Source of the DNA: a virus | Direction: 5' to 3' (one strand) | DNA length: 64,000 nt | IMG/VR virus record: IMGVR_UViG_3300045988_128133 | Shown: positions 23,064 to 63,902 of the stretch, piece by piece | How positions within the stretch are numbered: position 1 is the first letter of the stretch | Layout of the letters: every line of letters begins with the position of its first letter | Program-made: the position numbers and the translations under genes | Notes under the pieces: model-generated | Seen by the model: the letters and a program-made list of their open reading frames with translations, nothing else | Told to the model about the DNA's origin: nothing | Databases searched by the model: none

Positions 23064-23542
23064 AGAATCAAGGAAAACTCATCCAGCACCCAGGGCTCAA
23101 GTACCCACGGAAACCACGGAATTGTACACCCGCTGTAAAGAAGATTCCCTATGGCTACATGTCCACCCAGGAAATCGCGGAAGCCGTGGGTAGAACTCCC
23201 ACCTGTGTTCTCGTTACTCTGGAACGCCGCAAGGTGCCGAAGGTACGTTCCGGCAAGATGGTTTACTGGGACGGAGACATAGCACGGGAATATATTAAAA
23301 CACTTAACTCAGACGTGTACGAGGGAATTCCTAACGGATATACGGATATGGAAGGAGCCCTGGAACTCACTGGTTTTAAGAATGGAGCGACCCTCTCCAC
23401 CATGTTTAAGCGCGGGCGGGTCCGGCGTGTCCGGTACCGTGATGACATGGGTGCCGGGAGAAAGACGCGATTCGCGTATAATATTCTTGACCTGGAACGG
23501 CATATGGGCTTAACTAATGTCACCGAAGATGACGACGAATAA
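23060..23542 (+). CDS. HTH DNA-binding protein
   Basis: MSTQEIAEAVGRTPTCVLVTLER is an HTH-like segment. Confidence 0.4.
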   Translation: MKNQGKLIQHPGLKYPRKPRNCTPAVKKIPYGYMSTQEIAEAVGRTPTCVLVTLERRKVPKVRSGKMVYWDGDIAREYIKTLNSDVYEGIPNGYTDMEGALELTGFKNGATLSTMFKRGRVRRVRYRDDMGAGRKTRFAYNILDLERHMGLTNVTEDDDE

Positions 23543-23873
23543 TAACCATCAAATGGCAAAAGTCAGCAATCAGGAGGCATTACTGACAATTCTGTCCTGG
23601 GTCGATTTATTCGACCCTGACATGAGCCTGACCCGACTCCGCATCCTGCTTGCCCTTCACGGTGCGGGGGGCACCCCCACGCTGACGGTCAAGGTTTTGT
23701 CTCGCTATCTGTCTCTTTCCACGTCCAACCTTAACTATAATCTCAAGAAACTGATGGAGGATGGATGGGTGGAGATTGTAGAGGATAGCGAACCTGCTCT
23801 CTATCAACTGACAAGACGTGGCAGAACCTTCTGCCGCGATATATTCAAACCCCGAAAGTACATCAACAAATGA
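23517..23873 (+). CDS. winged-helix transcriptional regulator (MarR/ArsR-like)
   Basis: LRILLALHGAGGTPTLTVKVLSRYLSLSTSNLNYNLKKLMEDGWVE. Confidence 0.4.
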   Translation: MSPKMTTNNNHQMAKVSNQEALLTILSWVDLFDPDMSLTRLRILLALHGAGGTPTLTVKVLSRYLSLSTSNLNYNLKKLMEDGWVEIVEDSEPALYQLTRRGRTFCRDIFKPRKYINK

Positions 23874-37700: not shown

Positions 37701-40700
37701 GATGACCGTCTTTCCAACTGGCGCAGGAAGAACTGGAAGGACATGACCAATGTGGAGAAGGTGAAAGCTGTATCTTCCTACCTGTACAGCTGTGCCAAGG
37801 TGTCCGCTGAAGGCGCAACCGAAGAACTCGCGGATGAGTTTCAGGAATGGGCCGTCACGGAACTGGCCAAGAACGGAGAGATTTCTGAACAGTCTATCGG
37901 TACGTTCGAAGGAGTCGTTGAAGTAGGAGCAAAGGTTGCTTTCCTTGGTGCGCTTGGCGGTGTCTATGGAGCGCGGATTGCAGGGGAGACCCCGGCCCAG
38001 TTCCAGTTGCCCGCTATCGAACCCACGGAATCCAAGGTATTCAGGGATGCGAGTCAGCTGGTGGATAGCACGGGCAAAGCCCTGGAATCCGTGGACCCCA
38101 CGGGACCCGCGGCACCCTTGCTTGAAACAGGAATGCGGACGATTGAAATCGCAGGGGATAGGGGAGACGTGGAACTGGTGGCAACTGAATGGGTAAACAA
38201 GACCATAACTGACGAGGCCCTACAGCTGACGGATGAGCAGAGAAAGCAATGGATATCTAGGGCACCTGCCCTGGGTATGACCAACTTCCAGTCTTTCCGT
38301 GGCTACGTGCAGGAAGCTTCCGACAGGTATCAGTACGAAGGCGAATCCGCCGCGGCTGAATACCTTGCGGGCGTTATTCGCGACCTGCCCAACACGATGG
38401 CCTATGCCAACGATACAAACGTCAGTGTCATGCGCTCCATGCTGACCGAAGCATTCGACGCAATGAAGAGCCGCGAAGCCAACGTTCCCCTTGATGACCA
38501 CCTCGACCTTCAGGGTACGGGGGATGAAAGCCTTGATGAAGCATCCGTCGTAATCAATACGCTGACCAATGAACCCACGGAAACCACGGAAGCCGTAGCT
38601 CCCACGGAAACCACGGAGACCGCGGCCCGTGAGGAAGCCAATAAGATAGTAGCTCCTGTGCAGAACTTCCTCGACAATGGTACGGGGAGAGAAGCCGCCG
38701 AGGAAACCGTAAATACTTTGGCCGCAGGGACGGCTACGTTTGACCCCAACACCGGGGCATGGCTAGCCAGCGGCTCCTTGGAACAGCGGGCAGAAAAGCT
38801 GGTGGTGCTTAATAGCATGACCAGTCCCACGGGCCCCGTAGTTACCACGAACACCGGGGAGAGTATTGTCATGACTCCCAACGCCAGTATGTATGCGCCA
38901 AGTGCCAACGCCAAAGCGGAAGAAGCTCCTACTACCAAATGGGGGAACGCCGTCATGAGCCTTGACCTGCCTACGGACGGGACTGGAGTCAATGGTATTA
39001 ACCTCCTGAACAGGTTGAGCGTCAACGCTACACCTGCTCAGAAGAAAGCCATTGAAGGATTGACGCAGGCTCTCAATGCCGCGGGCCTTGACCTCGCAGT
39101 CCGTATGAGCACAGCGACTGACGGTAACTTCTCCCCTGCCATGATTACCTACAATCAAGGTGCGGATGGTGAACTGGCTGGTGGCGTTATTGACCTCTTC
39201 ACCAACAGGGAGAACGCGGTGGAAGGCACTACGGGTACACTCATCCATGAAGCTATCCACCTGCTGGACCGACACCTGCGGAAGAACAATGCAGAATATG
39301 GCCGGGAAATGAGCAAGCTTCGCTCAGCTATGGCGGCTCGCTTCAACGACATCCATGCAGTCTTGCGGGAGGCTTACGACAATAGCCTTGACCCCAACGA
39401 GATGAACGCAATCGCCGCTGTCATGAACGACCTGGCCTACGGGATTAAGGGTGCTGACGAGTTCGCCTCTGTGGTCTTCTCCAACCCCGTCATCAATTCT
39501 CTGGTAATGGGATTCACCGGGAAGAATGCGGATATGGACATGCTTACCCGGTATGCGGAAACGACAGGTAAACGTAAGCCGATTCACAATCGTATCATCG
39601 ACTGGTTGCGCGACCTCTTTCATGAGGTTCGCAATGAAATGCAGAATGCGCCTGTTCTCGATGAGGCAGAATGGAACGCCTATGTCCAGCGCGTGGCCGA
39701 CGTAGCCCCGGAAGGTGCCTGGTATAGTCTTGACCGACCGGAAACCTATGCAGTAAATGTGACGGACTACACCGGGAATAAGCTGGGTAAATCCTATTTC
39801 AACCCCATGGCCTATGAGAGCGGCCTCTCCCAGCGCATGAGCTTCGGTGTGGCCGCAGAAATTGTAGGCTCTTCCTCCGGCAACTGGGCGACCATGTTCC
39901 GCAACGGTTGGCGCATGACCCGCTGGGGGCAGGGAGGTATCAACGTTCCCACCCCGGAACAGCGTCTCGTCCTACAAGAACAAATGGTCAACCTGAGCGC
40001 ATCCTATGAGCGCGTCAATAAGCGTCTGGGTAAGGTGAAGGAGCTTGCGGATAAGTATGTCCAGAAGAACAACCTCACCACTGATGCCCGGCAGAAACTT
40101 GCCTCTGCCATCATTGACACGGCAGGTAATCTGGACAATGACATCGACCCGGAAACCGTGGAACGTATTAACCGTGAAACGAATGCGGAGATTGCTCAGC
40201 TCAAGGAAACCCGTGACTACCGTATCAATGCGGCGAAGCAACACGTACAGAGGGTGGTTAATCAGAACGCTGAACTGATTCGTGCCGCCAACCTCATGGC
40301 CAACACCAGTGAAGGACGTGCATCCATCAATGAAATGATTCGTCTCCTTAACGAAGTTGGCCGGGAAGGATATGCATCTACGGTCAATGCCGAAACTATG
40401 GCTCCCGCTATGAACCAAAGGCTCACGGAATCCATGGATTCCCTGGGTTCACGGGTTCGTGACCTGGGGAATGCGGCTCTCGCCTCCCGCTACTATGCAC
40501 TGGCACGGGACACCAAGAGCTACATTCTGGACCAGGTGAATGGGGTGGAATCTCCCTTCACTCTGGATGAATTGCAGGAGGGCTGGGATAATCTGCGCTC
40601 CGACTACCTGCGTGACGAGCTGTCCAAGAACGTTGAAACGGCCAACATGCTCCGTGACATTAAGGAGGCTAAGGCTCAAGCTCGTGAATGGATTAAAGAG

Positions 40701-43700
40701 GCTAACGCGGAATACGCGCAAGCCACACGCCATACGGGTATTAAGGCAGACGGTACGGTCGTTGAATCCGGCATCGTTTGGAAGAAGCGTGATGCCGCCC
40801 TGCTGGAAGCCCGAAGGAAGAAGCAGGCTGAATTCATGGCTCGTCGTGAAGCTGGTGAAAAATACCTGAAGGAGCAAGGCGTAATCGGAAACCTCATCTA
40901 CAATGCAGTTGTCGATGCCCGCAAGGAAATCGCAGTAACGCAAATGGCTATCGCCCGCATCACGGGTGACAGCAAGATGGAAGACAATGCCAAGCGCATG
41001 GACTACCTGCATCGCACCTATCTGGCTGTGGGTAAGCACGCTGGGGACTACACGAAGACGATGCGGGAAATCATCGCCAATCCTAACGGTGAAACCGCAC
41101 AAGCCTTTAAGGGGCTTACCGTTCTGTTGAATGAAGCCGCGACGGCTCATGCCGAAACCCATCAGAGGGAGATGGCCGAAACCGTAAGCACCGTGCTGGA
41201 CAATATGCAGGCACTTGCAACCCTGCATGATGAACTGAACCTTGAGGTAGTGCCCGCAGGGGACACGGCTAACGAGAACAACGCACTCCTGTTCAATGGT
41301 GTTGCCAAGAACTTCAGAAGTCGCAATATTCTTGACTTCATCCATGACAACTATGGGGAAATTCAGTTGGCTTCTGACCTCAAGAACGGAATGAATATGT
41401 CCAGCATCTACGATAAGGCCATGTCCATGATTGTGCAGAGCGACAGGTACACGGCCAAACGTCTGGACAAAGTGAAGCGCAGGCTTCGCACGGAAGCCCA
41501 GGATAAATACATTGAATCCCTCCTACAAGGTGTGCCGGGCGATACGCTTCTGGACAAGCTGGGTTCCTTCAATTCAGGAGATGCTTTGGCCCACAGGATA
41601 AATGAAATCCTCCCCATGGTTCCGGTCAATGCCATCAACCAAATCTGGAATACCCCGCACCTGGATATTGAAGAGAAGCTGAACGACGTGGTGGACCTTC
41701 TCCGTAAGCAGGCAGAGATTCAGATGAACCTCAATGGTCTGGGCAATGTCATTAACGCTCAGGACATTAAGACGTTGGAATACCCCCAGCTCGCGGAACT
41801 GGCCATGGCTCATGCCAAGGAAGCCATTGACGAAGTACTGTCCAAGAAACGCACCCGTGAAGACGTAACGTCTATGCGGAAACGTGAACCGGAATGGAAG
41901 CGCAAGGCCATGCACGAACTCCACGATACTACCATTGGTGAAGCCATTGGCGTATTGCAGAACACTGTTTCCCTCCAGTCTAAACTGGCAGTGAATCAGG
42001 TGCTGTCTGATGAATATGCAACAGTGCTTAAGGACCAGGGGGTTGTAGTCGCGGAGGACAGTGCGGACCGTACCCCCGACATGGTGGAAGTCATGTTGAA
42101 GAATAAGCGTAATTCCCTGAACGGACTCTACACTACGCCGGATGTGGCTCGTGCCATTTACAAAATCTACATGCCCTCCGACGAAATCATGGACTCCAAG
42201 ACCAGCACGTATGAGGATGTCCGCAAGTACTGGAAGAGCCACACAGGAAGACCTGGCTTCCTCTCAAAGACGGGCGGCTACATCAACATGGCCACTCTTA
42301 TCGCCAGCCCAGGTTCCACCTTCCGTAACGCCTATGGTACTGCGGCTCAGATGCTTCATGCTGGTGCGTTCCCTGTGAAGGGGCTTAAGGACATTGGTTC
42401 CCTCGTGAAAGAATGGGGCCAGATGCACAAGCTCTACCTTAAAGCACAGGAAGGAGGCATTGGTGCGGAGTCTTCTGCTCAGAAGCTCCTACAGGCTGAG
42501 TCTAAATACAATGAGAAGATTCGCTACTGGCAGGAGATTGGTCTTCTTGATGCGGGGCAGGGTGAATTCCTTCGGAATATTTGGAAGTCCGAAGAGTTCG
42601 CGACAATGCAGGGAGAACTGGAATCCACGGATTCCGAGGATTCCTTCTATGCCTTTGCCGAAGCGTTAGAGGATAAGAGGTCCAAGACCACCATCAAAGA
42701 TGTGGCCAAGAAGGCAGGACATGGTGTTGCATACCCCGTGAAATTGGCCGCCTTTGCTTACGGGATGCCGGATGCCGCGGCTAAGATTGCGTTGTTCGGT
42801 AATCAGCAGGCACTCAGCCGCAAGCAGTTGGAGGTCCAGCTGGAACGGGCGACCATGAGAGCGGCCGCTGGGGAAGAACTCAATGCAAGGCAGAAGGCCC
42901 TTGTCCGCGCGGCAGGTAATGGTGAAGTGGCATGGAATGCGTATGTCGATAGGCATGCGGCTTCCAAGGTGAAAACCCTGCTTCCGACAGGTACGCGCAC
43001 CCCGAAGTGGGTGAAGTACATGGGGCAGTATGTTGCGCCCTACTTCATGTTCCAGTACCATACCTTCCAGTCCGCTATGTATAACGTGGGCTACGGCATG
43101 GAAGAAATTAGCGATGGTGTATGGGCTATGAAGAACGGCATGAGTAAGGACGGTGCCTACCTCGTAACCCGCGGGCTTGGCCGATTCATGGGTTCCGCGG
43201 CGGCTCTGACTGCCATGCCCATGCTTTCCCGCTGGGCTCTCATCACAGCGTTGCATACTCTTTATGGTGATGATGAGGACAAGATGCAATTCATTACGAA
43301 TGAGGGGGCACTCCGTAAGATGGCAGAGGCTGGACTCTTCCCGGAATATGACAAGTACGGTGACTTACTCGCCGTAGTGGACAAGGAAAGGAACGAGTTT
43401 ACCTACTTTAATCTTGACTATGTGAACCCCTACAAGAACGTGGTCAAGAGCTTTGGTACACTCTACAGACTAGCAGTCAAGTATGACGAAGACAAGTGGT
43501 CCAGCAATCCTATGGGTGAACTTCACAACCTGTTGGAAGGCACTGTGTTATCTCCGTCCATGGGGCTCGCTACCTTGTTTGAAGTGTTAGATGCTGAAGG
43601 ATTCCATTATCAGTATGCGACTACGGGCAATGAGAACGTGGACTTCATACCTGCGGTCGTCAATGCTCTAACCCTCACGGCGGGCTTCGAACCGTCCATG

Positions 43701-44387
43701 AGTGGCGGCCATACCTGGGAATGGGCTGAACGTCTGGCAACTACAGCGAATAGCAAACTCCCGGTCTATAGTTGGGGTGTCAAGTCTATCCGTTCTCTGG
43801 GTGGAGATACCCCCGACCTTAGCTGGGGAGCATTCGCCGCGCAGACGATTGGTACGGGGATGCGTAGGCCGAAGGACCTGACGGAAACCTTCGCTCAAGG
43901 GTTGAAGAATTCCCAAGCTTCGCTCAACCGAGCCAAGCGTATGACGATTCTCAAGCCGAACTACTATAAGCGAATGGAGTCCGGGGCTGACGTGGATGCC
44001 GTGGTTGCCGAGGAATCCGAGGCTATCATTAAGAGCTATACCAACGTGGTGAACGGGGTGCGCTTCGTCTATGGACTGAGCCGAACCTTGCCAGAGAATA
44101 TGAGGGATGCTGTCCTTGCCTCCGCTATTGAACGTTCCGGCATGAGTGCCAACAGGTTCAAGGCGGCCATGAGTGGCATCCTCCCTGAACTGATTAGCAA
44201 GGAGTCTGCCAAGGAAGCCATTGCTCGTCTCCAACTGGAAGATAAAAAGGCAAGCACGACGGAACGTGGTCATGAACTGATTCAGAAACAGATTGACCTC
44301 ATCCTCCAGCAGGCTGGAAGCGGTTCCGTGGATGTCAATGACAGAGCCTTGAGCCAGAAGGAAATTGATGGTTCTCTTCGACAGTAG
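34788..44387 (+). CDS. giant (3199 aa) multidomain virion/injection protein; tape-measure-like hydrophobic Gly-rich segments plus HExxH zincin motif
   Basis: N-terminal coiled coils, Gly-rich hydrophobic segments, and HEAIH at nt 39246-39260. Sits at the end of the tail block. Confidence 0.55.
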   Translation: MAIDFTTASPADWNPSSEITGIREARAAEKHAAWQRGQEQKALDRQKKEAEEAQKQAVKGVEAEADFFTHLSGVLDTERKEQEKRAKEQKTEARKEVTEARADIQFEQGQADRARAERDRDVKSLSRRNMGLNFEALEDMTDYVGRSADSFVDLKEGAKANPQVMEKLGNSLGLNVVSSNSLTPTDPAFTSRFGFSVGADGQPVITEKFLAIAADRNRSSKDVSTAIARTLAAERKSYIKANTTVAPDSAAKAEAEAPETMEAEEIKAIIDSIRREDVNTFNAARKVYDKYNTASTESIQGKAAKPREASVGELGVGESFDTAPSFTGNVFAELANLSKSPSTMFRLVRDYGKYVADTASTVAADARAAEAGKRAVTAAKTIDNLVKQMEDEYEGINSVALRDALMNEAKVAEAAVKRLAPMVDLDEMRAMADKKSHELGRTIESDYRRDYADTLYAELEKRNPGLSRDLIRTLGTTELLDKHTVGLKKRGSLDDAVAGAMSQYRSAAGQVADVLTFQPKASVGKTSDPLSAMEWRQGARGWEYGVVGGPTFEVSTEQLRDYMKNYGIKSTKDALNSLSHAARQGDLNLGRGTLFAYNPHTKEVDTNATLQYNPNALYDDDLFNRSVNQLQESGANPELIERTIEQWKKARTKSASEMVKQNMELEETLGALRDTWMGTGAGFAGGWVMDRLDKMLSFKEFYNSGKENGQSDEQILAAWQKEGQGAINSILRGLQIGAHKFADIGTGAVAGSLLFASNLIGSDTGREKARTMWNTLNEKQQAEGELVKGNLMADMSAEIVNLGYQMVATHVGGTVGSVAGRALERTAVNGLIKASAKVIARKTEALVPAARPGLASGISGGVQRVLNQAAAIDLQRVGAGAGVNTVIASQIVPQAYSEIFYAVYDREMDGKEHTAENLEAAQAKANRRAMMGAGIAGGMSVLINNRMGMESFIRKAVGAKNLRRENWFNRVDDRLSNWRRKNWKDMTNVEKVKAVSSYLYSCAKVSAEGATEELADEFQEWAVTELAKNGEISEQSIGTFEGVVEVGAKVAFLGALGGVYGARIAGETPAQFQLPAIEPTESKVFRDASQLVDSTGKALESVDPTGPAAPLLETGMRTIEIAGDRGDVELVATEWVNKTITDEALQLTDEQRKQWISRAPALGMTNFQSFRGYVQEASDRYQYEGESAAAEYLAGVIRDLPNTMAYANDTNVSVMRSMLTEAFDAMKSREANVPLDDHLDLQGTGDESLDEASVVINTLTNEPTETTEAVAPTETTETAAREEANKIVAPVQNFLDNGTGREAAEETVNTLAAGTATFDPNTGAWLASGSLEQRAEKLVVLNSMTSPTGPVVTTNTGESIVMTPNASMYAPSANAKAEEAPTTKWGNAVMSLDLPTDGTGVNGINLLNRLSVNATPAQKKAIEGLTQALNAAGLDLAVRMSTATDGNFSPAMITYNQGADGELAGGVIDLFTNRENAVEGTTGTLIHEAIHLLDRHLRKNNAEYGREMSKLRSAMAARFNDIHAVLREAYDNSLDPNEMNAIAAVMNDLAYGIKGADEFASVVFSNPVINSLVMGFTGKNADMDMLTRYAETTGKRKPIHNRIIDWLRDLFHEVRNEMQNAPVLDEAEWNAYVQRVADVAPEGAWYSLDRPETYAVNVTDYTGNKLGKSYFNPMAYESGLSQRMSFGVAAEIVGSSSGNWATMFRNGWRMTRWGQGGINVPTPEQRLVLQEQMVNLSASYERVNKRLGKVKELADKYVQKNNLTTDARQKLASAIIDTAGNLDNDIDPETVERINRETNAEIAQLKETRDYRINAAKQHVQRVVNQNAELIRAANLMANTSEGRASINEMIRLLNEVGREGYASTVNAETMAPAMNQRLTESMDSLGSRVRDLGNAALASRYYALARDTKSYILDQVNGVESPFTLDELQEGWDNLRSDYLRDELSKNVETANMLRDIKEAKAQAREWIKEANAEYAQATRHTGIKADGTVVESGIVWKKRDAALLEARRKKQAEFMARREAGEKYLKEQGVIGNLIYNAVVDARKEIAVTQMAIARITGDSKMEDNAKRMDYLHRTYLAVGKHAGDYTKTMREIIANPNGETAQAFKGLTVLLNEAATAHAETHQREMAETVSTVLDNMQALATLHDELNLEVVPAGDTANENNALLFNGVAKNFRSRNILDFIHDNYGEIQLASDLKNGMNMSSIYDKAMSMIVQSDRYTAKRLDKVKRRLRTEAQDKYIESLLQGVPGDTLLDKLGSFNSGDALAHRINEILPMVPVNAINQIWNTPHLDIEEKLNDVVDLLRKQAEIQMNLNGLGNVINAQDIKTLEYPQLAELAMAHAKEAIDEVLSKKRTREDVTSMRKREPEWKRKAMHELHDTTIGEAIGVLQNTVSLQSKLAVNQVLSDEYATVLKDQGVVVAEDSADRTPDMVEVMLKNKRNSLNGLYTTPDVARAIYKIYMPSDEIMDSKTSTYEDVRKYWKSHTGRPGFLSKTGGYINMATLIASPGSTFRNAYGTAAQMLHAGAFPVKGLKDIGSLVKEWGQMHKLYLKAQEGGIGAESSAQKLLQAESKYNEKIRYWQEIGLLDAGQGEFLRNIWKSEEFATMQGELESTDSEDSFYAFAEALEDKRSKTTIKDVAKKAGHGVAYPVKLAAFAYGMPDAAAKIALFGNQQALSRKQLEVQLERATMRAAAGEELNARQKALVRAAGNGEVAWNAYVDRHAASKVKTLLPTGTRTPKWVKYMGQYVAPYFMFQYHTFQSAMYNVGYGMEEISDGVWAMKNGMSKDGAYLVTRGLGRFMGSAAALTAMPMLSRWALITALHTLYGDDEDKMQFITNEGALRKMAEAGLFPEYDKYGDLLAVVDKERNEFTYFNLDYVNPYKNVVKSFGTLYRLAVKYDEDKWSSNPMGELHNLLEGTVLSPSMGLATLFEVLDAEGFHYQYATTGNENVDFIPAVVNALTLTAGFEPSMSGGHTWEWAERLATTANSKLPVYSWGVKSIRSLGGDTPDLSWGAFAAQTIGTGMRRPKDLTETFAQGLKNSQASLNRAKRMTILKPNYYKRMESGADVDAVVAEESEAIIKSYTNVVNGVRFVYGLSRTLPENMRDAVLASAIERSGMSANRFKAAMSGILPELISKESAKEAIARLQLEDKKASTTERGHELIQKQIDLILQQAGSGSVDVNDRALSQKEIDGSLRQ

Positions 44388-54735: not shown

Positions 54736-55536
54736 TTAGCGGTTGTACTTAGGAAGGGCGGCGTTGTAGTCCGTGCGCTTGTAGTGATATGTTTTCGGTG
54801 ACGTAATGGACGCAATAAGGGCATCCTGCTTCACCAGTTCACGCTTTACTTTAATTGTAGATTGCACAATCTTTCGCAAGATGCTTTCTTTCTGCATGTT
54901 GTGGAGAGATGTAAGAGCACTTTCCGCCTTAGATTCCAGATATTCCACAGTTGCGTTTAGCTTGTCAATCACGGGTTGCATGTCATCTACGCTAACAATG
55001 CGCCCAGTTTCCGGACTCACTAACACCTTAAAATCCAACGGGAAAGAAATATGTTCCTCCAATCCTAGGCTTCCGTGGAATCGGAGGCAATGCAAATCGT
55101 AATTGCTGAAATCTACATAGCCTTTAATTGTACGGAGAGTCTCTTTTTTCCGGGCATCATCCAAAGAGTCGGAGAAGCAAGCCTTTATGGCATTGTCCAA
55201 CCGGGCGTTGTAGACCTTACCCGCAAAACTGGGAAGCTTAGCAATTAGCCGCCTGATGAAGTCAATGGAGATATTGGCGGCGTAATAATAATTAAAAAGT
55301 TTCACTCGTGTAACATTCAAATCATCCAAAAAGGTACGGATTGATGCACCCAGTTCCCGCCAGTCATCTTTACCGAGGCCTTCCCCCGGTTCACCGTTGA
55401 ACTGGTTCCAGACTTCTTCCCGAACCGTTTTAATAGCGGCATCACTTTTCGTCATGTATGCAATCGTTTCGTTATGTGTGGTATATTTCATTTTCTTATT
55501 CTTTCTATTGGTTTTGTTAATATCCTTAAATATCAA
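54736..55536 (-). CDS. hypothetical protein
   Basis: 266 aa. Confidence 0.4.
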   Translation of the reverse strand: MIFKDINKTNRKNKKMKYTTHNETIAYMTKSDAAIKTVREEVWNQFNGEPGEGLGKDDWRELGASIRTFLDDLNVTRVKLFNYYYAANISIDFIRRLIAKLPSFAGKVYNARLDNAIKACFSDSLDDARKKETLRTIKGYVDFSNYDLHCLRFHGSLGLEEHISFPLDFKVLVSPETGRIVSVDDMQPVIDKLNATVEYLESKAESALTSLHNMQKESILRKIVQSTIKVKRELVKQDALIASITSPKTYHYKRTDYNAALPKYNR

Positions 55537-56084
55537 TCAATTATGCGTAACACCCTTGCTTCTGCGTCATCCGTACTGGGTGCCATATAACGCCCGCAAC
55601 CGTCAAAAGTTTCCGTTGCGGATGCGTCCATGAAATTAGTATGGACGTAATAGCTAAGATAAGGGCGGCCGTGCTTCGCATAATTCCACCCTACGGGAGC
55701 ATATTCATCATTCCAACGCATATCTGCAACACGCTTAAAACCTGCGTTTTTATATATTTTCGATAAATGGGGCGTATCGAGGCACATCAGCCACCCGGCA
55801 CCGTGAGCAACCGCATCACAGACTAGCCCGCTTCCGAGTATGATACTTTTCGGAGACTTAATGAGAGATACTAGCTCAAGATTTTCCGTGATTGCATAAA
55901 CTGCAACCGGGTTTGACGGTGTGCCTATCAAGTGGCAGTGCGCTTTCTTTTGGACATACCAGCTTTCTTCATGCACATCCACCGCGCCGCGCGTTCCTTC
56001 GTCAATCTTATTACGCAATTTATGCGCGGCGGTCAGCCATTCATTAAGGTCTTCGGTTTCGGCGTTGTAGCAATATCTATTCAT
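55533..56084 (-). CDS. possible GNAT-fold acetyltransferase
   Basis: ILGSGLVCDAVAHGAGW...YKNAGFKRV is a weak match to the acetyl-CoA-binding motif A. Confidence 0.3.
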   Translation of the reverse strand: MNRYCYNAETEDLNEWLTAAHKLRNKIDEGTRGAVDVHEESWYVQKKAHCHLIGTPSNPVAVYAITENLELVSLIKSPKSIILGSGLVCDAVAHGAGWLMCLDTPHLSKIYKNAGFKRVADMRWNDEYAPVGWNYAKHGRPYLSYYVHTNFMDASATETFDGCGRYMAPSTDDAEARVLRIID

Positions 56085-56185: not shown

Positions 56186-56576
56186 TTAGACTGTATGACA
56201 AAACGGAGATTTATTTAGTAGTTTTGCTATCTGTATTTTTGCAATTCTGTGAGAAGGAAACACCCTAGAACATTTTCTTTTATATGTTGATAAGGTGCAA
56301 GGTGTTAGACAATTTGCCCGAACGTAATAAATTGTTGAATCTTCTTCTCCACCGTAAGGACGTACTAAACCTATTTCAATATATCCGGCTGAAATAAGTT
56401 CTTCAATGGGTCTTTTTGTTGCAATAGCCAGCCAGCTATACTTCTCCAACTGTACCGCATCTTTAATAGGTACGGAAGAAGCCTTTTCATCCGATACGGG
56501 AATCAATTCACTATTTACTACCTTATACCGGAACACCAAATCGTCAGCCAAAGGTAAAAATTTTATTCTTTTCATA
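56186..56576 (-). CDS. hypothetical early protein (ATG 56576)
   Basis: TTGTCATACAA at 56590-56602 abuts its start region. Confidence 0.35.
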
Positions 56577-56601
56577 TTATTTTTCAAGGTTGTATGACAA
56601 A

Positions 56602-57150
56602 TTACAAATAATTAACATGAGAGAGATACTTACTCCAATTCAGATTTTCCGGCTCTACTTCCTGCCCTTTCACCTGACGGAAGCGCATAAAGAGCTCCAC
56701 CTTTTTTCCTTTGGTATCATATCCGGGTGCGCTCCACTCTTCCAGATATTCTTCCCCCTCCCCCGCGTGGTGAATACTACCCGGAAAAAATCGGTTGGAA
56801 AGGGTCATTTGACGGGTGGCGCAATAGACGTGCCCTTGATAGACATACCCGCCGAACTGTTTTCGGAGTCCGTGAAAATCAACAGGGCATTGACCTTGCA
56901 CAAAGTAAAAATTATTGTTAACTACCAACCCTAAACGGAGGGAAACTGCACCGAGAGCACGGGCAATCAAACCTTCCAAAGATTTGACGGAATCGGAGGC
57001 GGTCAAATAGACTACCCATGCTTGGCCATGCCTCCAACAAATATGTTCCCGTTGGAGTGCGTTCTTAACACGTTTTTTAGCGTTGCGCCCTTCGGCACCT
57101 TGTGCATTGAGGCAGTCAAATAAAATTACGATTGTTTTTGCAGTTTTCAT
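56602..57150 (-). CDS. hypothetical early protein
   Basis: 182 aa. Confidence 0.35.
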   Translation of the reverse strand: MKTAKTIVILFDCLNAQGAEGRNAKKRVKNALQREHICWRHGQAWVVYLTASDSVKSLEGLIARALGAVSLRLGLVVNNNFYFVQGQCPVDFHGLRKQFGGYVYQGHVYCATRQMTLSNRFFPGSIHHAGEGEEYLEEWSAPGYDTKGKKVELFMRFRQVKGQEVEPENLNWSKYLSHVNYL

Positions 57151-57204
57151 ATTTAGTTTTTCTATTTGGTTTGTTCACCACCCTTGTGGGTGGCTGATGA
57201 AGTT

Positions 57205-57232
57205 AATCTAGCAGATTTTGCTACCTTGTCAA
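57205..57232 (-). promoter_or_regulatory. early promoter TTGACA-N16-TAGATT (cassette B)
   Basis: Leader hairpin is CCACCC-ACAA-GGGTGG. Confidence 0.5.
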
Positions 57233-57266
57233 ATTATTTTTTACTTTGTATGACAAAATGGATAAA

Positions 57267-57587
57267 TTATTGATTGATAATGGCTTGTGCGTAGTCCATA
57301 ATATTGCTTACGTGTACAACCCGGAAGCGTTCCTGTTCCGCAATCAGGGCAATGTCTTTTTGCTGACGGGAAGTTGTCTGGGAGTATTTGCGGGAAGAAA
57401 GATAAAGGATTTTATTTGCTCTATCTACTGCCGCAATTATGGTGGCATATGAGTACAAGAGCGGCCCCTCAAATTTCATTGAGCGAAGGCTTCCATAGTT
57501 GGTGCGGCGCAATGGTGCTTTCCCGCTGGTTGCGGTTCCGTCCAGATACGGGTACATAAGTTTTTCAACGTAGTTTCGGGTATTCAT
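57267..57587 (-). CDS. hypothetical early protein
   Basis: 106 aa. Confidence 0.35.
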   Translation of the reverse strand: MNTRNYVEKLMYPYLDGTATSGKAPLRRTNYGSLRSMKFEGPLLYSYATIIAAVDRANKILYLSSRKYSQTTSRQQKDIALIAEQERFRVVHVSNIMDYAQAIINQ

Positions 57588-57643
57588 ATTCTGTTTTCTT
57601 TCTATTTGATTTGTTTGCCGTCCTATCGGTGGCTGATGAAGCT

Positions 57644-57671
57644 AGTTTATCGGATTTGATGATGTTGTCAA
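57644..57671 (-). promoter_or_regulatory. early promoter TTGACA-N16-TAAACT (cassette C)
   Basis: TTTTGTCATACAA lies at 57699-57711. Confidence 0.5.
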
Positions 57672-57717
57672 CTATTTTATTTAAAATTTTTCATCTTTGT
57701 ATGACAAAAGTTGAAAC

Positions 57718-57951
57718 CTATTTATTTTCAGTGCGTTTCACGTTTGTAAATATTAGGCAGGTTAAGGGGCCGCTGGTAGGGCATATGCCTGATAAAACCC
57801 ATTCACCGGGAAATTTCCGCTTGTCAATTCTTTTTTCTCTTTTTTGCGGTGTATCTGATTTCGGCCCTAGCGTCATCACCCTTTCCGGCGTTCCCCTCAT
57901 TCTGCCTATCCGAAATGTTTCGGTGGTTATCTCGTCCATATTAAGCGGCAT
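57718..57951 (-). CDS. possible small basic protein in 228-nt gap
   Basis: 77-aa ORF that overlaps the upstream stop by 11 nt. Composition is only moderately coding-like. Confidence 0.2.
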   Translation of the reverse strand: MPLNMDEITTETFRIGRMRGTPERVMTLGPKSDTPQKREKRIDKRKFPGEWVLSGICPTSGPLTCLIFTNVKRTENK

Positions 57952-58264
57952 TCATTCCGGCATCTTCCAGCATCAAGCAAAGCGGGTCAGAAATGTGCAC
58001 CCGTGAAACTTTCCAATCGGCTTCATTTCGGCGGTACTCGTCAATCGTCATTTCCCGGTGCGGTACGTTTTTGAGCAGGCCCCGCTTTTTTGCGATAATG
58101 GTAAGAGTTGCACCGCATTTTTCCGCTAGGTTAGTAAGATAGACTAGTTCCGTTGCGGCATTTTTTGATAGTTGCAGGGTATATGGTTCAACCTGCCTCA
58201 CATTAGCGGCTAGATTTTTAATCATCACCCGTTCATAAGGTTTGAGTTCGGCAATGGTATTCAT
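57941..58264 (-). CDS. hypothetical early protein
   Basis: 107 aa. No promoter of its own, so probably co-transcribed with the 58289 gene. Confidence 0.35.
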   Translation of the reverse strand: MNTIAELKPYERVMIKNLAANVRQVEPYTLQLSKNAATELVYLTNLAEKCGATLTIIAKKRGLLKNVPHREMTIDEYRRNEADWKVSRVHISDPLCLMLEDAGMNAA

Positions 58265-58288
58265 GATTGATTGTTAGTAGGTTAAAGA

Positions 58289-58528
58289 TTAGTCAAAAAG
58301 CAGTTCAAAGCCGTCTTCATACTTGCTCAATTCCGCATCCCATGAATCCGCAACTTCTTTGATAAGTGATTCAATGGCTTCCGGGTTTTCGGTAATTACG
58401 TAGATAATGCAAGTGTTGGTGGTGCGGAAACTTTGCCCCGTGATGCGGTTGATATGCTGGTGTATGTTTTGCTGATGCGCCTTTTCCCAGATTTCGCTTG
58501 CAATTATTGCCATAGTTTCTTCTCTCAT
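58289..58528 (-). CDS. small acidic early protein
   Basis: 79 aa, acidic. Confidence 0.35.
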   Translation of the reverse strand: MREETMAIIASEIWEKAHQQNIHQHINRITGQSFRTTNTCIIYVITENPEAIESLIKEVADSWDAELSKYEDGFELLFD

Positions 58529-58607
58529 AATCTATTGTCTTTCTATTTGGTTTGTTCACCGCCCCTTGTGGGTGGCTGATACCGCTATCGCGGCGGGTTA
58601 TGCGGCT

Positions 58608-58635
58608 ATTTTATCGGGTGTTCTAATGTTGTCAA
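58608..58635 (-). promoter_or_regulatory. early promoter TTGACA-N16-TAAAAT (cassette D)
   Basis: Consensus -35 and -10 elements, with TTTTGTCATACAA at 58664-58676. Confidence 0.55.
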
Positions 58636-58690
58636 CTATTTTATTTAAAATTTTTCGAGGTTGTATGACAAAATCGTAAATTGTTGATTA

Positions 58691-59185
58691 TTAGTTAGAT
58701 AGTTTGAAGTGAGGGCGGGCAATACTGGTTGGCAGGTAAATATCATCATGGGTGGCAAAGAGCACACGCCCATTGCGGATGACCGCAAACGCCGTCCACC
58801 CGTCATTGCGGGCAAGTACTGATGTCAGGGCGTTAAGATAGGTTCCTATCGTCCTGCGTCCGTCCGGTTTGTGTGCACCAACGGGCGGCTCGCTTTTATC
58901 GCACCAGAAATAGACGGTGCAGTTATGAAGTGAAGTAGATAATGGGGCCGGAATGATGCCCGTGTATCTATAGCGGCTCTCCACATACCAAGGTGTACAA
59001 GGTGCCGGGCCACCAAAGGCAGGGGAGTTTTCGAACCGGGAGTCTGGGGCGGTAGGGGAGACAAGCAAAAAATGACGGGAAAACTCGTCAGCTTGTGCCC
59101 GTTCTTCGGCGGTCGTATCTCCAAAGTCTCCTGTACGGAGGTAATTGACAAGGCGGGTAGGAATATATGCAATATCTGTGTTCAT
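58691..59185 (-). CDS. hypothetical early protein
   Basis: 164 aa. Confidence 0.35.
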   Translation of the reverse strand: MNTDIAYIPTRLVNYLRTGDFGDTTAEERAQADEFSRHFLLVSPTAPDSRFENSPAFGGPAPCTPWYVESRYRYTGIIPAPLSTSLHNCTVYFWCDKSEPPVGAHKPDGRRTIGTYLNALTSVLARNDGWTAFAVIRNGRVLFATHDDIYLPTSIARPHFKLSN

Positions 59186-59233
59186 ATGTTTATTTTGGTT
59201 GCGGGGGAGGTACCGCCCCCCGGTGATTGATAT

Positions 59234-59575
59234 TTAGTCATTAACGCCGAAGGCCAAACGGGCGGCGGCTCCCATGACGGAGGTATTAAGCTCATGCCGG
59301 GTTGCTACGATATTATTGCCCTGACGGGTGGCCACATCCGTGAAATAGAGATTGCGGGCCTTGCGGGCATCCTTATCATTGCGGATATCATGGCCCAGAT
59401 AGTTTTCCAGTAGGTCTTTATCCTCATTCCAACATGCCGCAACGTCGATATTATCGATGCAGGGCCTAATGGATTCTGTGGGCACCGGGGATGCAAAGAC
59501 TGTCCGGCTTCCGTGGGTTACAAACATGTGTAAGGTTCCGGCGTTATCTTCAATCACAATGTAGTTCATATTCAT
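59234..59575 (-). CDS. hypothetical early protein
   Basis: 113 aa. Confidence 0.35.
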   Translation of the reverse strand: MNMNYIVIEDNAGTLHMFVTHGSRTVFASPVPTESIRPCIDNIDVAACWNEDKDLLENYLGHDIRNDKDARKARNLYFTDVATRQGNNIVATRHELNTSVMGAAARLAFGVND

Positions 59576-59637
59576 AATATATTGTCTTTTTCTATTTTGG
59601 TTTGTTATTCACCGCCTTATTGGCGGTTGATGCGGCT

Positions 59638-59665
59638 ATTTTATCGGGTATGATGACGTTGTCAA
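59638..59665 (-). promoter_or_regulatory. early promoter TTGACA-N16-TAAAAT (cassette E)
   Basis: Leader hairpin is ACCGCC-AATAA-GGCGGT. Confidence 0.55.
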
Positions 59666-59731
59666 CTATTTTTTTTTTAAAATTTTTTCAGCTTGTATGA
59701 CAAAAGTTGCAATGCCCTCACTACGTGTGAC

Positions 59732-60313
59732 TTATCGCACGGGAAAAACTTCGCATCCTACCACAACCACCCGGCAATATTCCCGGCCGTCATTCTTGGC
59801 TTCCCGGATTGTGGTGACTAGCCGGGTTAAATCGTCCGGGTTTTTGAGGGTGAGGGCAAGAGCCGAGCAAGTGACGGTACCAAGTTCCATTGCTTCAAAA
59901 TTGGATTTAATGGCGGCGAGTACCCGGGTGCGGGTCTCTTTGTTTTTGATAAGACTAGCCATGACGATTACTTTTTTCCCGGCATACTTTGCAGACAGTT
60001 CGGCGGGCGTGGGGGAAATGGCACTAAAGGCATGGCGGCCCGCATTCCTCATATTTTCCCACAAGGGGCGGCGGCAATAAACTAGTTCTGTCCCCGGCGT
60101 TGCGGCCGTTGCAGTCCACCACTTGCGGGCATCGATGATATCTACGGGCATTTTCCAGCTCTTCACCTCATGCAAATTGTTGAGCATGTGTGGCAAGTAT
60201 TCAGCCGATACCGGGCCAGCAAATCTGATATCACCTAGATTATCAACCACAACTAAACGGAGTTCACCCGTCTTTGTTTCGTACACTAGCACATGGAGTT
60301 CTTTCTTATTCAT
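59732..60313 (-). CDS. hypothetical early protein
   Basis: 193 aa. Its N-terminus is duplicated in the adjacent pseudogene. Confidence 0.4.
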   Translation of the reverse strand: MNKKELHVLVYETKTGELRLVVVDNLGDIRFAGPVSAEYLPHMLNNLHEVKSWKMPVDIIDARKWWTATAATPGTELVYCRRPLWENMRNAGRHAFSAISPTPAELSAKYAGKKVIVMASLIKNKETRTRVLAAIKSNFEAMELGTVTCSALALTLKNPDDLTRLVTTIREAKNDGREYCRVVVVGCEVFPVR

Positions 60314-61379: not shown

Positions 61380-61407
61380 ATTTTACAAGAGAGTAGGGTA
61401 CTGTCAA
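61380..61407 (-). promoter_or_regulatory. early promoter TTGACA-N16-TAAAAT (cassette G)
   Basis: Here the TTTTGTCATACA element (61476-61487) is in inverted orientation. Confidence 0.5.
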
Positions 61408-61529
61408 TAGATTTATTTGATAATTGTTGATACTCATTGGCGAAAGCGGTGTAACTCGTTGAACCTGTGGCAATTATGATTTTGTCATACATCTCCGCTT
61501 CGCTATGATGCGGGCCGTACATCTCCGCT

Positions 61530-61742
61530 CCCACGGTTCCCACGGTTCCCACGGTTCCCACGGTTCCCACGGTCGCCATATGTGCGTGCGCGCGTGTGCG
61601 TGCATATGTATATAGTGGTTGCCGTGGGTTCCGTGGAGTCCGTGGAGTGTATGGGTAGCATGGGAACCGTGGAGTGTATGGGTAGCATGGGAACCGTGGA
61701 GTCAATGGGAACCGTGGAGTCAATGGGAACCGTGGGTTCCGG
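61530..61742. repeat. large imperfect inverted-repeat cluster of CCACGG-type units (candidate ori/pac/partition site)
   Basis: 5x tandem CCCACGGTT (61530-61574), then an alternating Pu/Py tract (61577-61614), then inverted units GGAACCGTGGAGT: 2x a 27-bp unit plus 2x an 18-bp unit (61621-61742). Confidence 0.85.
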
Positions 61743-61810
61743 CCGCGCCTCATGTATGGTAACTCCCTGATGCTAAGTCTGTTACATTTCTTATACAACT
61801 GTATAACTTT

Positions 61811-61845
61811 TAGTTTAGGTTTCTTAATAGTTTAGGTTTCTTAAT
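61811..61845. repeat. direct repeat AGTTTAGGTTTCTTAAT x2; nearby AAAATTTATAC x3 (61847, 61879, 61971)
   Basis: Seen directly in the sequence. Confidence 0.7.
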
Positions 61846-62321
61846 TAAAAATTTATACCGTTCGCATACCTTCACATAAAATTTTATACGAAGTGCATGC
61901 GAAGGGTGCAAATTAGAGCACGGAAATCACGGAAACAGTGTAAAATAGTCCAATATCAGACCATCCCACATAAAAATTTATACGCCTGTATAGGAAATGT
62001 GCCAACCTTTTACAATTTTGTAAAATGAAGCATGCTTCGGATAATTTAAGACCTTCATCCTCAACGTATTCCCCTTATTCTGACAGGATTAGTAGGATTA
62101 AAAAGATGAGGCCAGTTCTCAAATAACATTCCTACCAATTAGGCATTATATGTATTATGCGAAGTATGGAACTGTAACCCATTGATTCTATGGTACTTAT
62201 AGCAAACAGGGTGCCAATAGGAAACAGGGGAGAGTGGAAGCATGCACCAATTGCGTGAAGGGGCAGGCTACCCTATACCTTATTGAGTATCTGACGGTTA
62301 GGGGAAGCGGAAGCCGGAAAG

Positions 62322-62364
62322 CCACGGATTCCACGGATGCCGGGAGGCCACGGATGCCGGGAGG
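62322..62364. repeat. tandem CCACGGATGCCGGGAGG x2 preceded by CCACGGATT
   Basis: gccacggattccacggatgccgggaggccacggatgccgggagg. Confidence 0.8.
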
Positions 62365-62612
62365 CCCTAATATGTTAGGCGCAACTAACTTTTGGAAAAA
62401 ATTGGCGGCATGGGGAAATTTTTTCGGCCAAAAAAGTCCAAATACCACCACGGTTTCCGGGGCTTCGGGGCAACACATGCGCTATTGTAAAAGATTGACA
62501 CAAATTTTTCGGCAGGGGTGCGGGGGTAGGGGTACCCTTCTGGGCAGACAGGGGAGAGGCTTGTCAAGAGAAATCGACGCGCGGCTGGGCTTCATTTTCA
62601 TCTATTTTATGC

Positions 62613-62640
62613 TTGACAGAAAAAAGATTTCTGCTATAAA
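62613..62640 (+). promoter_or_regulatory. sigma70-like promoter TTGACA-N16-TATAAA in non-coding region
   Basis: gcttgacagaaaaaagatttctgctataaa. Confidence 0.45.
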
Positions 62641-62646
62641 AGCCTC

Positions 62647-62827
62647 CGGTTCTCGAAGAGGTCTGCAAGGGCTCACTCCCCAACTGTAGACCCACTCTTT
62701 ACTCAGGTAGCCGCAACAGATAATGTCGAGTAAAACTGTTGGCCGGGCAGACCTGGTTTCGAGTTCGAGAACCCAACTTCCATTGGATTCCCCGGAGGTC
62801 GCGGCAACGGCTTCCGGGGTTTTTGTT
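62647..62827 (+). ncRNA. candidate ~180-nt non-coding transcript (promoter-to-terminator unit)
   Basis: Bounded by the 62613 promoter and the 62790 terminator. No convincing ORF inside. Confidence 0.3.
62790..62827 (+). terminator. rho-independent terminator
   Basis: CCCCGGAGG...CTTCCGGGG hairpin followed by TTTTTGTT. Confidence 0.5.
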
Positions 62828-63860
62828 GTCAAGAGAAATCGACGCGCGGCGAGGGTTCCAAGAGGCATATTAAATCCTACTAGTTTGGTAGGGATTAAGA
62901 GGGACCAGATTAGAGTTACTGAAACCCCATGGAGCAGTCCATGTCAAGCAAAATCGACATGCGGCCATTACCATGCACAGGGCACTGTCAGATAAACAGC
63001 AACATCTACAGCGTCGCAACATGAAAGAACCCCTCCGAAGTACCGTGAAGGCGATACCTGGAGGGGCTGAAAGATACGACTAAACCAGTAGAAAGGAAGG
63101 CCCGTGCGGAGAACCTTAGCCAGGGAAGGGTTTCTGAACTCGCGTCGCGTAGCGGTGTCAGCCGTTGTCTCCGTGGGGACCGGGGGCAATTTATCACGGG
63201 GAGGAAACCCTGTCAAGCAAAAACGGTTTACGTGGGAGCAATGGCTTCCGAGGGTACCGGGGGTACATGTCAAGCAAAAACGACGCGCGGCGGGTACCCA
63301 GGCCCACAGTAGGGAGTTCCATCATACAGGAGGTAGCTCTTGCTCTTATAGCTTCCACCCAAGGTTGCCCATTCCTGACATGTTACCCCACCACTCCACG
63401 CGCTTGCACAGTGTGTTGGCTATCGTTAACCACTGAAGGAGGTCAAGGCCGTTTTAGCCGGGGGTAACTTTGTTCTACCTTATTAGGCCTACTTACAATG
63501 TTACCCATACCTAAAAGAGAGGTTTGAGAGCGGGATGGACAATCACAAGGGGGAGGGTAGGTAAGCTCGTGGAAGGTAGGGGTAACATGACAAGAATGGG
63601 ACTGTGCGTAGCCACCCGTGATGCAGGTGTTCATGCGTAGGTACGCGCGGGGGTGAGCAGGAGGGGGAAAGAGGAGGAACCCGCTTGACAGAGGCTGTGA
63701 CTGGCCTAGAACAGTGGAACAACGTAACTTTGGTAGTGGGTTAACTCCCTTATCATCAAGAAGTTACTACAGAGTGGAACAGAGTGGAACAAGATGAGAA
63801 TGTGACAAATTTTCACTGACTATCAACGAGTTGCAGGGTTAGGAACAACGAACAGCTTTA

Positions 63861-63902
63861 CGCGCGCGGTGTATATGTGTGTATGTGTGTATGTGCGTAT
63901 AT
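63861..63902. repeat. alternating purine-pyrimidine (GT/GC) Z-DNA-prone tract
   Basis: cgcgcgcggtgtatatgtgtgtatgtgtgtatgtgcgtatat. Resembles the tract at 61577-61614. Confidence 0.7.

Follow-up and report, generated by a model that had tools for sequence, protein, structure and literature searches.

Opposed hexamer arrays at the transcription divergence point as a candidate origin or control region in a probable family of Akkermansia phages

Anatomy of the repeat cluster and its surroundings

The DNA analysed here is a 64,000-nt stretch of the viral record IMGVR_UViG_3300045988_128133 in IMG/VR (hereafter, the window), and the element in question is a cluster of short repeats at 61529-61741. 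Genes on the '+' strand occupy 1-45.7 kb and include that of the large terminase (TerL, 3750-5585), whereas '-' genes occupy 45.8-61.3 kb and encode an NAD-dependent ligase, a thymidylate synthase and many small unknown proteins. The '-' genes closest to the cluster are preceded by a series of sigma-70-like promoter cassettes. Past a non-coding gap, '+' genes encode, in order, a 249-aa protein, a 954-aa primase-helicase, a family-A DNA polymerase (PolA), an SNF2/DEAD helicase and a PD-(D/E)XK exonuclease. The cluster is the sole point of transcription divergence, with the early operon running leftward and the non-coding region and replication module rightward, and it lies ~14 kb from TerL around the circle. 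The primase-helicase is a fused primase and superfamily 3 (SF3) helicase with a BT4734-like N domain and a VapE-like domain. Among PDB entries, only 7PDS, the Rep1 protein of the Staphylococcus aureus pathogenicity island (SaPI) SaPI1 bound to DNA, is related to it by sequence, and distantly so (E = 6e-6).

Twelve CC(AC/GT)GG hexamers were found within 61529-61741, all spaced by multiples of 9 bp, five in forward and seven in reverse orientation on either side of a 38-nt core. The left arm (61529-61573, '+') was confirmed as five tandem units: Tandem Repeats Finder (TRF) gave 5.0 contiguous copies of TCCCACGGT at 100% identity and a 9-bp period, C-rich on '+', with the full CCACGGTTCCCA present in four of the five copies. 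The core (61577-61614) is, exactly as the initial annotation had it, a 38-nt tract of perfectly alternating purine and pyrimidine (Pu/Py). It is G+C-rich with an AT-rich end, ATATGTATATAG, and is the longest such run of the window; the sole other run of at least 16 nt is at 63869-63902 (34 nt). TATATAG at 61609-61615 overlaps the core end and is the only block conserved in all relatives compared. The right arm had been described as about six inverted units, organised as two 27-bp and two 18-bp repeats. Its inversion was borne out, as were both periods by TRF, but the counts were not: seven hexamers are present, only four of them in full TGGGAACCGTGG units, and the 27-bp unit occurs in ~2.6-3.5 copies and the 18-bp unit in 2.7 copies (100%). 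The inner right arm (61617-61648, '-') holds three CCGTGG hexamers at 61622, 61631 and 61640 with 9-bp spacing (GCCGTGGGTTCCGTGGAGTCCGTGG). The outer right arm (61651-61741, '-') holds the four TGGGAACCGTGG units at 61661, 61688, 61706 and 61724, spaced by 27, 18 and 18 bp. TGGGAACCGTGG is the exact reverse complement of the left-arm 12-mer, and the outer right arm is G-rich on '+' with a GC skew of +0.5.

The 8-mer core of the unit, CGGTTCCC, occurs four times forward and four times reverse in the cluster and three times elsewhere, which is chance level (11 in the window against 2.7 expected); the full unit is essentially confined to the cluster. The two sides form a dyad with 50-nt arms of 76% complementarity, and the single-strand DNA fold of the cluster reaches -64.2 kcal/mol (z = -5.1), with none of 200 shuffles as good. 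Searches of Rfam (gathering thresholds) and with ARAGORN gave no match to a known RNA or tRNA. Because an identical cluster is present in the ENA contig ERZ1689595 NODE_1 (71,872 bp) and homologous versions occur in independent assemblies, the cluster is not a repeat assembly artefact, a possibility that the annotation had raised.

The DNA on both sides also carries repeats and promoter-like sites. To the left lies the most upstream leftward early promoter (61380-61407, '-'; TTGACA, 16-nt spacer, TAAAAT), which scored 11/12 in a promoter scan and is kept in two relatives (L040, L041). A 12-mer, TGTATGACAAAA (61480-61491, '-'), abuts the cluster and is inverted with respect to six '+' copies in the early promoter cassettes. 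It is overlapped by a promoter-like site from the promoter scan (61482-61509, '+'; TTGTCA, 16-nt spacer, TATGAT), and two copies of a direct repeat, TACATCTCCGCT (61488-61529, '+'), 30 bp apart, run into the left arm; at this position the relatives have analogous repeat pairs or 27-bp repeats. To the right, an AT-rich trough of 23-28% GC (61780-61900) contains 2.1 copies of a 17-bp iteron, TAGTTTAGGTTTCTTAA (61811-61845), and TTATAC-type repeats. Iterons recur in relatives, as a 17-bp unit in two and four copies or a 19-bp unit in 3-10 copies. These iterons beside AT-rich DNA are a property of the neighbouring element, not of the flagged hexamer arrays. A 28-nt inverted repeat (61784-61811 and 61973-62000, 82% complementary) brackets the AT-rich stretch, and a rightward promoter-like site (61999-62026, '+'; GTGCCA, 16-nt spacer, TAAAAT), kept in L040, L044, L091 and L095, leads into the non-coding region. 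A secondary group of three CCACGG hexamers lies at 62322-62353 ('+'); the homologous hexamers in L040 are flipped to CCGTGG. The annotation had placed the cluster between the first early promoter and a 2.3-kb non-coding region. The promoter side of this is correct; the non-coding region measures 2.83 kb (61324 to ~64156), includes the cluster and contains no credible gene.

Relatives, host and turnover of the arrays

The TerL protein matched 39 IMG/VR loci, nearly all of them in a single dataset, the longest contig being 73 kb. No match was found among the cultured phages of INPHARED, either by megablast of 59-64 kb or by tblastn of TerL, and a TerL search of 185,579 species genomes returned no relative; prophage or plasmid relatives were not found either. 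The related phages are ~70 kb and come from the human gut, and a metagenome search with the left flank also led to human-gut contigs. One human-gut contig (L092; ENA UAOM01010162) carries an array of clustered regularly interspaced short palindromic repeats (CRISPR) whose repeat, GTTTTGCCTTGAATCCAAAATAAGGCACAGTACAAT, is 36 nt long. Of its 18 spacers, 10 or more match the phage family, mostly in the early region, with protospacers in the window at 36868-36898, 54750-54779, 55628-55658, 58781-58808, 60258-60287 and 61410-61439, the last of which abuts the first early promoter. Since the repeat was found in only one of the 185,579 species genomes, an uncultured Akkermansia metagenome-assembled genome, Akkermansia is the likely host as judged from spacers and repeat. 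The phages form a family not described before, which probably infects Akkermansia. This family, which has no cultured relative, is abundant and highly diverse in human-gut datasets, and Akkermansia is a bacterium of medical interest.

The versions of the cluster fall into type A, with five versions (the window, L040/L094/L090, L044/L093, L091 and L095), and type B, with more than 10 contigs. Type A has 3-5 units of (T/C)T(T/C)CCACGG on the left, a core of ~25-50 bp that is partly alternating Pu/Py and ends in ATATAG, and 3-7 inverted CCGTGG units on the right. Type B carries, on the left, 2-7 copies of TTCCCCCGG or units of 15-18 bp that contain TTCCCCGG; a (TA)n or (TA)n(GA)n core with a terminal TATAG comes next. 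It is followed, in turn, by phased T-tracts, the 16-bp palindrome TGTTCCA(C/T)(G/A)TGGAACA, 8-9-bp arrays (GCAATCGG, GGATTCC, CGGSTTCAA) and 3-10 copies of the 19-bp iteron. In 14 of 15 versions the order is the same, with C-rich arrays, an alternating core that has TATAG at its end, G-rich arrays and AT-rich iterons in succession, and skew polarity is also kept, at -0.18 to -0.45 left of the core and +0.03 to +0.44 right of it. A TATAAT or TATGAT 3-4 nt ahead of GTCATACA is conserved in both array types. Arrays, 17-bp iterons and rightward promoter are inherited with the early-gene module, and a mosaic breakpoint lies at ~62171.

The hairpin potential, on the other hand, is specific to lineages. 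The large cruciform proposed earlier is compatible with the arms of the window, with the z of -5.1 given above, and type-A versions range from -3.6 to -12.1; in type B, z ranges from +0.6 to -7.2 and the dyad symmetry is often absent, so this feature is kept in type A but not in type B. The Z-DNA-prone core fared similarly: both types have an alternating Pu/Py core, yet only that of the window is GC-rich, the type-B core being (TA)n or (TA)n(GA)n.

The units themselves turn over quickly. The sequence varies between lineages by single substitutions homogenised across the array (TTCCCACGG, TTTCCACGG, CTTCCACGG, TTCCCCCGG), copy numbers run from 2 to 8, and entire arrays are gained or lost. Such changes, together with the breakpoint just right of the cluster and the variable copy number of nine-base arrays within genes, would be expected of a hypervariable micro- or minisatellite cluster without sequence-specific function, produced by slippage and unequal exchange in a non-coding recombination hotspot between exchangeable modules. 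We consider this explanation unlikely, given that 14 of 15 versions share block order, strand polarity and TATAG core, that the opposed arrangement persists in all five type-A versions despite the turnover, and that nothing similar occurs elsewhere in the ~64 kb. The repeat complex offers a natural series on the turnover of tandem binding-site arrays under a kept layout. The hypervariable arrays may also serve as strain markers, and they could account for assembly breaks at the cluster.

A candidate protein-loading site and its alternatives

Our preferred reading, held tentatively and at somewhat less than an even chance, is that the cluster is a cis-acting protein-loading site and part of the phage replication origin. 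Its basis is a positionally conserved site, unique in the genome, that combines opposed arrays with adjoining AT-rich iterons where transcription diverges, ahead of the replication module. The two opposed hexamer sets would both be recognised by a multimeric DNA-binding protein, for which a product of the early module, the SF3 primase-helicase and a host factor are candidates. Binding might wrap or distort the DNA such that the alternating Pu/Py core or the adjacent iteron stretch of 23-28% GC opens. The SaPI-Rep1-like primase-helicase and the family-A polymerase, both encoded downstream, would then begin synthesis. The analysis shows the anatomy of the site, its conserved position, its uniqueness, the adjoining iterons and the genes around it; protein binding, melting and any role in replication are what we infer. 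The cluster resembles several repeat-built nucleoprotein sites yet does not qualify as a member of any specific family examined; for this phage family, it is the best candidate for an origin or control region. As a defined fragment, it would lend itself to work on replication, binding or phage resistance ('Per'-type) once a host and phage can be paired.

The closest parallel in layout is provided by the Rep origins of SaPIs and other phage-inducible chromosomal islands (PICIs). SaPI origins comprise 6-12 short iterons, split evenly and in opposite orientations about an AT-rich centre (PMC9371898); the iterons are 5-6 bp long, lie immediately downstream of the rep gene and match the cognate Rep. 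Similarly, the five forward and seven reverse units of the window form two opposed sets, as do those of all type-A versions, and the phage encodes a primase and SF3 helicase with a VapE-like domain whose sole PDB sequence relative is Rep1. However, the units of the window are hexamers phased at 9 bp, not 5-6-bp iterons, and its centre is G+C-rich Pu/Py with an AT-rich end, the type-B centre being (TA)n with T-tracts. Moreover, the non-coding region and the 249-aa gene separate the cluster from the helicase gene (~2.8 kb), and the arrays do not co-vary with helicase type.

Several of these observations, with others, weigh against an origin-type loading site. SaPI origins directly follow the rep gene, whereas the cluster precedes the helicase gene by 2.8 kb, and the core of the window is G+C-rich rather than AT-rich. 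The primase-helicase exists in two types that are 35% identical, and a type 1 and a type 2 genome (L040 and L044) have near-identical TTTCCACGG arrays with helicases 35% identical. Conversely, the arrays of L044 and L045 differ although their helicases show 99% identity across the 703 C-terminal residues compared. The arrays thus travel with the early-gene module, not with the replication module. No recognisable DNA-binding or initiator domain, including any ribbon-helix-helix (RHH) or helix-turn-helix (HTH) fold, was found in the early-module proteins with Pfam and PHROGs. GC skew follows the coding strand, and the fast turnover of copy number and unit is also compatible with weak or no selection. 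The primase-helicase as matched reader of the iterons is weakened, as arrays and helicase types shuffle independently; the absence of co-variation argues against a SaPI-style matched helicase-iteron pair despite the 7PDS match and the opposed iteron layout. The earlier view of an origin-like architecture was thus upheld in context (divergence point, AT-rich iterons, replication module 2.8 kb downstream) but found no support in helicase co-variation. GC skew was set aside as an origin marker, since it is uninformative when it tracks the coding strand.

By the genome comparisons, exchange of the replication module is independent of that of the early module. In a separate comparison, L071/L043 and L044/L026 are near-identical genomes with primase-helicases 35% identical, and the extra 249-aa gene is found only with type 1.

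Inheritance of the arrays with the early-gene module, not the replication module, is also what would be expected of an operator array for divergent promoters, at which an early-module protein of RHH or winged-helix type would tune or silence the first early and/or the rightward promoter, in the manner of R1 ParR at parC or of omega at heptad arrays. From the -35 element of the first early promoter it is ~120 bp upstream to the start of the cluster, which is flanked by promoter-like sites. Type-B relatives moreover carry a second small array and the same 16-bp palindrome in an early-operon intergenic gap ~3.2 kb off. Yet the other early promoter cassettes (57.6-60.6 kb) are without CCACGG units, twelve sites are many for a simple operator, and no RHH or HTH is recognisable in the early module, the only winged HTH (MarR_2) being encoded among late genes. 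We regard an operator as rather doubtful.

The known RHH-bound arrays, R1 parC with ParR and the omega heptads of pSM19035, resemble the cluster in having two blocks of about five short direct repeats around a ~40-bp core, tolerated direct and inverted units, and variable copy number. For the phage, by contrast, neither a motor of ParM or ParA type nor an RHH protein could be detected, and it gives no sign of a plasmid or prophage lifestyle.

The switching of all units of an array together by one base is the basis of a further proposal, that the arrays and a candidate early-module protein might form a fast-evolving reader-site pair, exchanged as a cassette independently of the replication genes. 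This appears quite improbable; if true, the pair would be a new type of origin or immunity-like specificity module in widespread uncultured Akkermansia phages. In a variant of this idea, the units might act as imitations of parS half-sites by which host ParB is recruited or titrated.

Iteron origins (lambda ori, P1 oriR, P4 ori and crr, pSC101) share with the locus the placing of repeated sites beside an AT-rich unwinding stretch. Tandem iterons of 17-19 bp in 2-10 copies adjoin the cluster, and the relatives add palindromes and phased T-tracts; as with P4 ori and crr, type-B relatives carry a smaller second site kilobases away. In contrast, the encoded proteins include no initiator resembling lambda O, RepA or the DNA-binding domain of P4 alpha, and where such origins have 17-22-bp iterons at helical phasing, the flagged units follow one another as contiguous 9-mers. 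Pfam, PHROGs and PDB gave no match of Rep, O or RepA type for the early and replication modules, the SF3 primase-helicase excepted. In the model of Leonard and Grimwade, the low-affinity DnaA sites of Escherichia coli oriC lie 2 bp apart with an 11-bp period. The cluster likewise has two oppositely oriented arrays of 9-mers, and GTTTCCACG shares six of nine positions with TTATCCACA, including TCCAC, although TTATCCACA may not be the box of the host. The period of the cluster is, however, 9 bp and not 11 bp, and its unit differs between lineages, which is not favoured if the reader is a conserved host protein.

The palindrome of the type-B relatives brings in ParB. The parS consensus is a 16-bp palindrome, TGTTNCACGTGAAACA (PMC7022226), and the ParB of Pseudomonas aeruginosa binds GTTCCAC half-sites (PMC10419367). 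The CG form of the type-B palindrome, at the homologous place, matches 15 of 16 positions of this consensus, and the window has three copies of TGTTCCAC at 63714-63791. A ParB-type centromere, or a decoy titrating host ParB, with the units as parS half-sites (GTTCCAC or GTTTCAC), would fit these matches. In the window itself, no parS-like palindrome was found at up to two mismatches to TGTTNCACGTGAAACA, and parS was rejected there; the palindrome is restricted to type-B relatives. The units (GTTCCCAC) have one extra base compared with the half-site. No ParBc, ParA or ParM hit was obtained among 63 window proteins and six large open reading frames (ORFs) or among the replication-module proteins of relatives, and the 185,579 species genomes yielded no prophage or plasmid relative. 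A ParB-type centromere is not supported, and either form of this idea is extremely improbable. The suggestion that the cluster is a centromere or pac site found no backing from a ParA/ParB, terminase-linked or known initiator protein.

The palindrome occurs twice per type-B genome, once in the array region and once in an early-operon intergenic gap beside a small GGGTTCCGG array. It was located in L045, L049, L050, L051, L054, L061, L066 and L070 (at ~3.3-3.6 kb in 16-kb loci), with second copies at L049:438, L050:420 and L054:99. TGTTCCAC is half of the type-B palindrome and of parS. Three of its four copies in the window lie ahead of the 249-aa gene at 63714-63791 ('-'), and two of these form a tandem with a 10-bp period.

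As to packaging, P1 pac has hexamer sets on both sides of a central region, and the T7 SRL/SRR are short repeat arrays between a genome end and host-type early promoters, a placement that the cluster would share if a genome end lay nearby. A P1-type pac, or an SRL/SRR-like block with the 2.3 kb between two Pu/Py tracts as terminal repeat, would agree with hexamer sets that flank a central core, with the bracketing of the non-coding region by the two longest Pu/Py tracts of the window, and with the position of the early promoters, which lie directly inside it like those at the left end of T7. At the homologue of the second tract, four IMG/VR contigs have their starts within ~60 bp of one another, and some loci end inside the arrays. 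On the other side, the cluster is not in or near the terminase genes: the large terminase gene is ~14 kb off and no small terminase was recognised. The ends of the remaining full-length contigs, and of the ENA contig that contains the window, lie at unrelated positions, which is usual for circular or permuted assemblies; in a multi-strain sample, assembly is expected to fail at tandem repeats and (TA)n tracts; and no contig end falls at a core of the window type. Contig ends are ambiguous as markers of termini, since repeats in multi-strain assemblies break likewise. A packaging or terminus element is decidedly unlikely.

The second-longest Pu/Py tract, of 34 nt at 63869-63902, with AT-rich DNA to ~63950, lies 2.29 kb right of the core, so that two tracts bracket the non-coding region. 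The four contigs (085489, 079317, 105858, 091709) begin, at position 1, within ~60 bp of one another in a (TA)-rich tract homologous to it, which could reflect a terminus or a plain assembly break. A 171-aa ORF preceding TerL was considered as small terminase and dropped, having neither a Pfam hit nor a terminase signature.

Transcription through the cluster would provide yet another role. A rightward transcript from 61482-61509 might form a long hairpin RNA, for processing or as a decoy, or, as known from ColE1 or T4, an R-loop might prime a Pol I-type polymerase, here at the AT-rich stretch and stabilised by the G-rich non-template right arm. The TTGTCA/TATGAT site (16-nt spacer) just upstream, the conserved TATAAT or TATGAT before GTCATACA, the conserved succession of a G-rich '+' strand right of the core and then AT-rich DNA, and the family-A polymerase encoded by the phage are consistent with such a role. 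The conserved -10-like element has, however, poor -35 spacing, the hairpin potential is not conserved in type B, and Rfam gave no hit. The core itself showed no convincing sigma-70 promoter, by promoter scan or by eye. We judge a role of this kind highly improbable.

The dispersed hexamer and further features of the window

The motif of the cluster had been reported as sprinkled through the genome. This is true of the hexamer: CCACGG occurs 108 times in the window, a three-fold enrichment over the 34.8 +/- 6.1 expected. It is not true of the full unit, and the link is not a functional one. Among coding copies, 67 of 90 are in a single frame (xCC-ACG/GTG-Gxx), and these in-frame copies often yield tripeptide repeats of [SPTA]-[TV]-[EGD]. 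A synonymous-codon shuffle predicts 45.7 +/- 6.1 coding copies, so that the 90 seen are a 2-fold excess. CCGCGG and CCATGG are enriched as well and CCTCGG is missing, which is a pattern of codon context. The coding copies are not conserved at the DNA level in relatives that are ~76% identical there, and their density is equal in type-B genomes whose array uses TTCCCCCGG. The sprinkled motif was therefore rejected as a genome-wide binding network on account of its frame bias, its loss in relatives, the uncoupling of its density from the array unit and the lack of 8-mer enrichment outside the cluster. The genome-wide excess is mostly a codon-context effect, uncoupled from the array. Neither the cruciform, the Z-DNA core nor the genome-wide motif link stands up as a conserved or functional feature, and the function of the cluster is something that we infer.

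Related hexamers show the opposite tendency. On the '+' strand of 1-61300, CCTCGG is absent against ~15 expected, CCTAGG occurs three times against 14 and CCTTGG eight times against 21, with CCGAGG found 11 times. Depletion of CCTCGG-type hexamers is likely caused by codon usage in the xCC-NNG-Gxx frame. In-frame tandem repeats of 9 bp (CCACGGAAT type) encode S-T-E or P-T-E in many unrelated proteins, for example at 18065-18090, 22382-22402 and 38571-38625, and in L045-L054 at 6857-6919. Their copy number varies among relatives, from 3.6 to 7 in the N-terminal region of the primase.

Further elements were noted in the non-coding region. A ~24-nt motif, TGTCAAG(A/C)(A/G)AAA(T/A)CGAC(G/A)(C/T)GCGGC, has about five occurrences at 62556-63300 ('+'). 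A strong sigma-70-like promoter, seen by eye at ~62612-62640 (TTGACA, 17-nt spacer, TATAAA), is followed by a terminator with a T-run (62790-62819). Together they would yield a predicted non-coding RNA of ~170-190 nt, which has no Rfam match.

In the early region, TGTATGACAAAA recurs in each promoter cassette (56192-59705 on '+', 61480-61491 on '-'), with eight matches at up to one mismatch against 0.3 expected, and the cassettes also share GTTGTCAACTATTTTATTTAAAATTTTT and a leader, CCAAACAATAGAAAGAnAATA, ahead of each ATG. Among the late genes, 23517-23870 ('+') encodes a 118-aa winged-helix protein of MarR type (MarR_2, E = 6e-11); no other protein of the window is recognisable as a sequence-specific DNA-binding protein or has a winged HTH in Pfam. 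A 3199-aa ORF without Pfam hit occupies 34788-44387 and is the one long region whose coding strand is G-rich, not C-rich.

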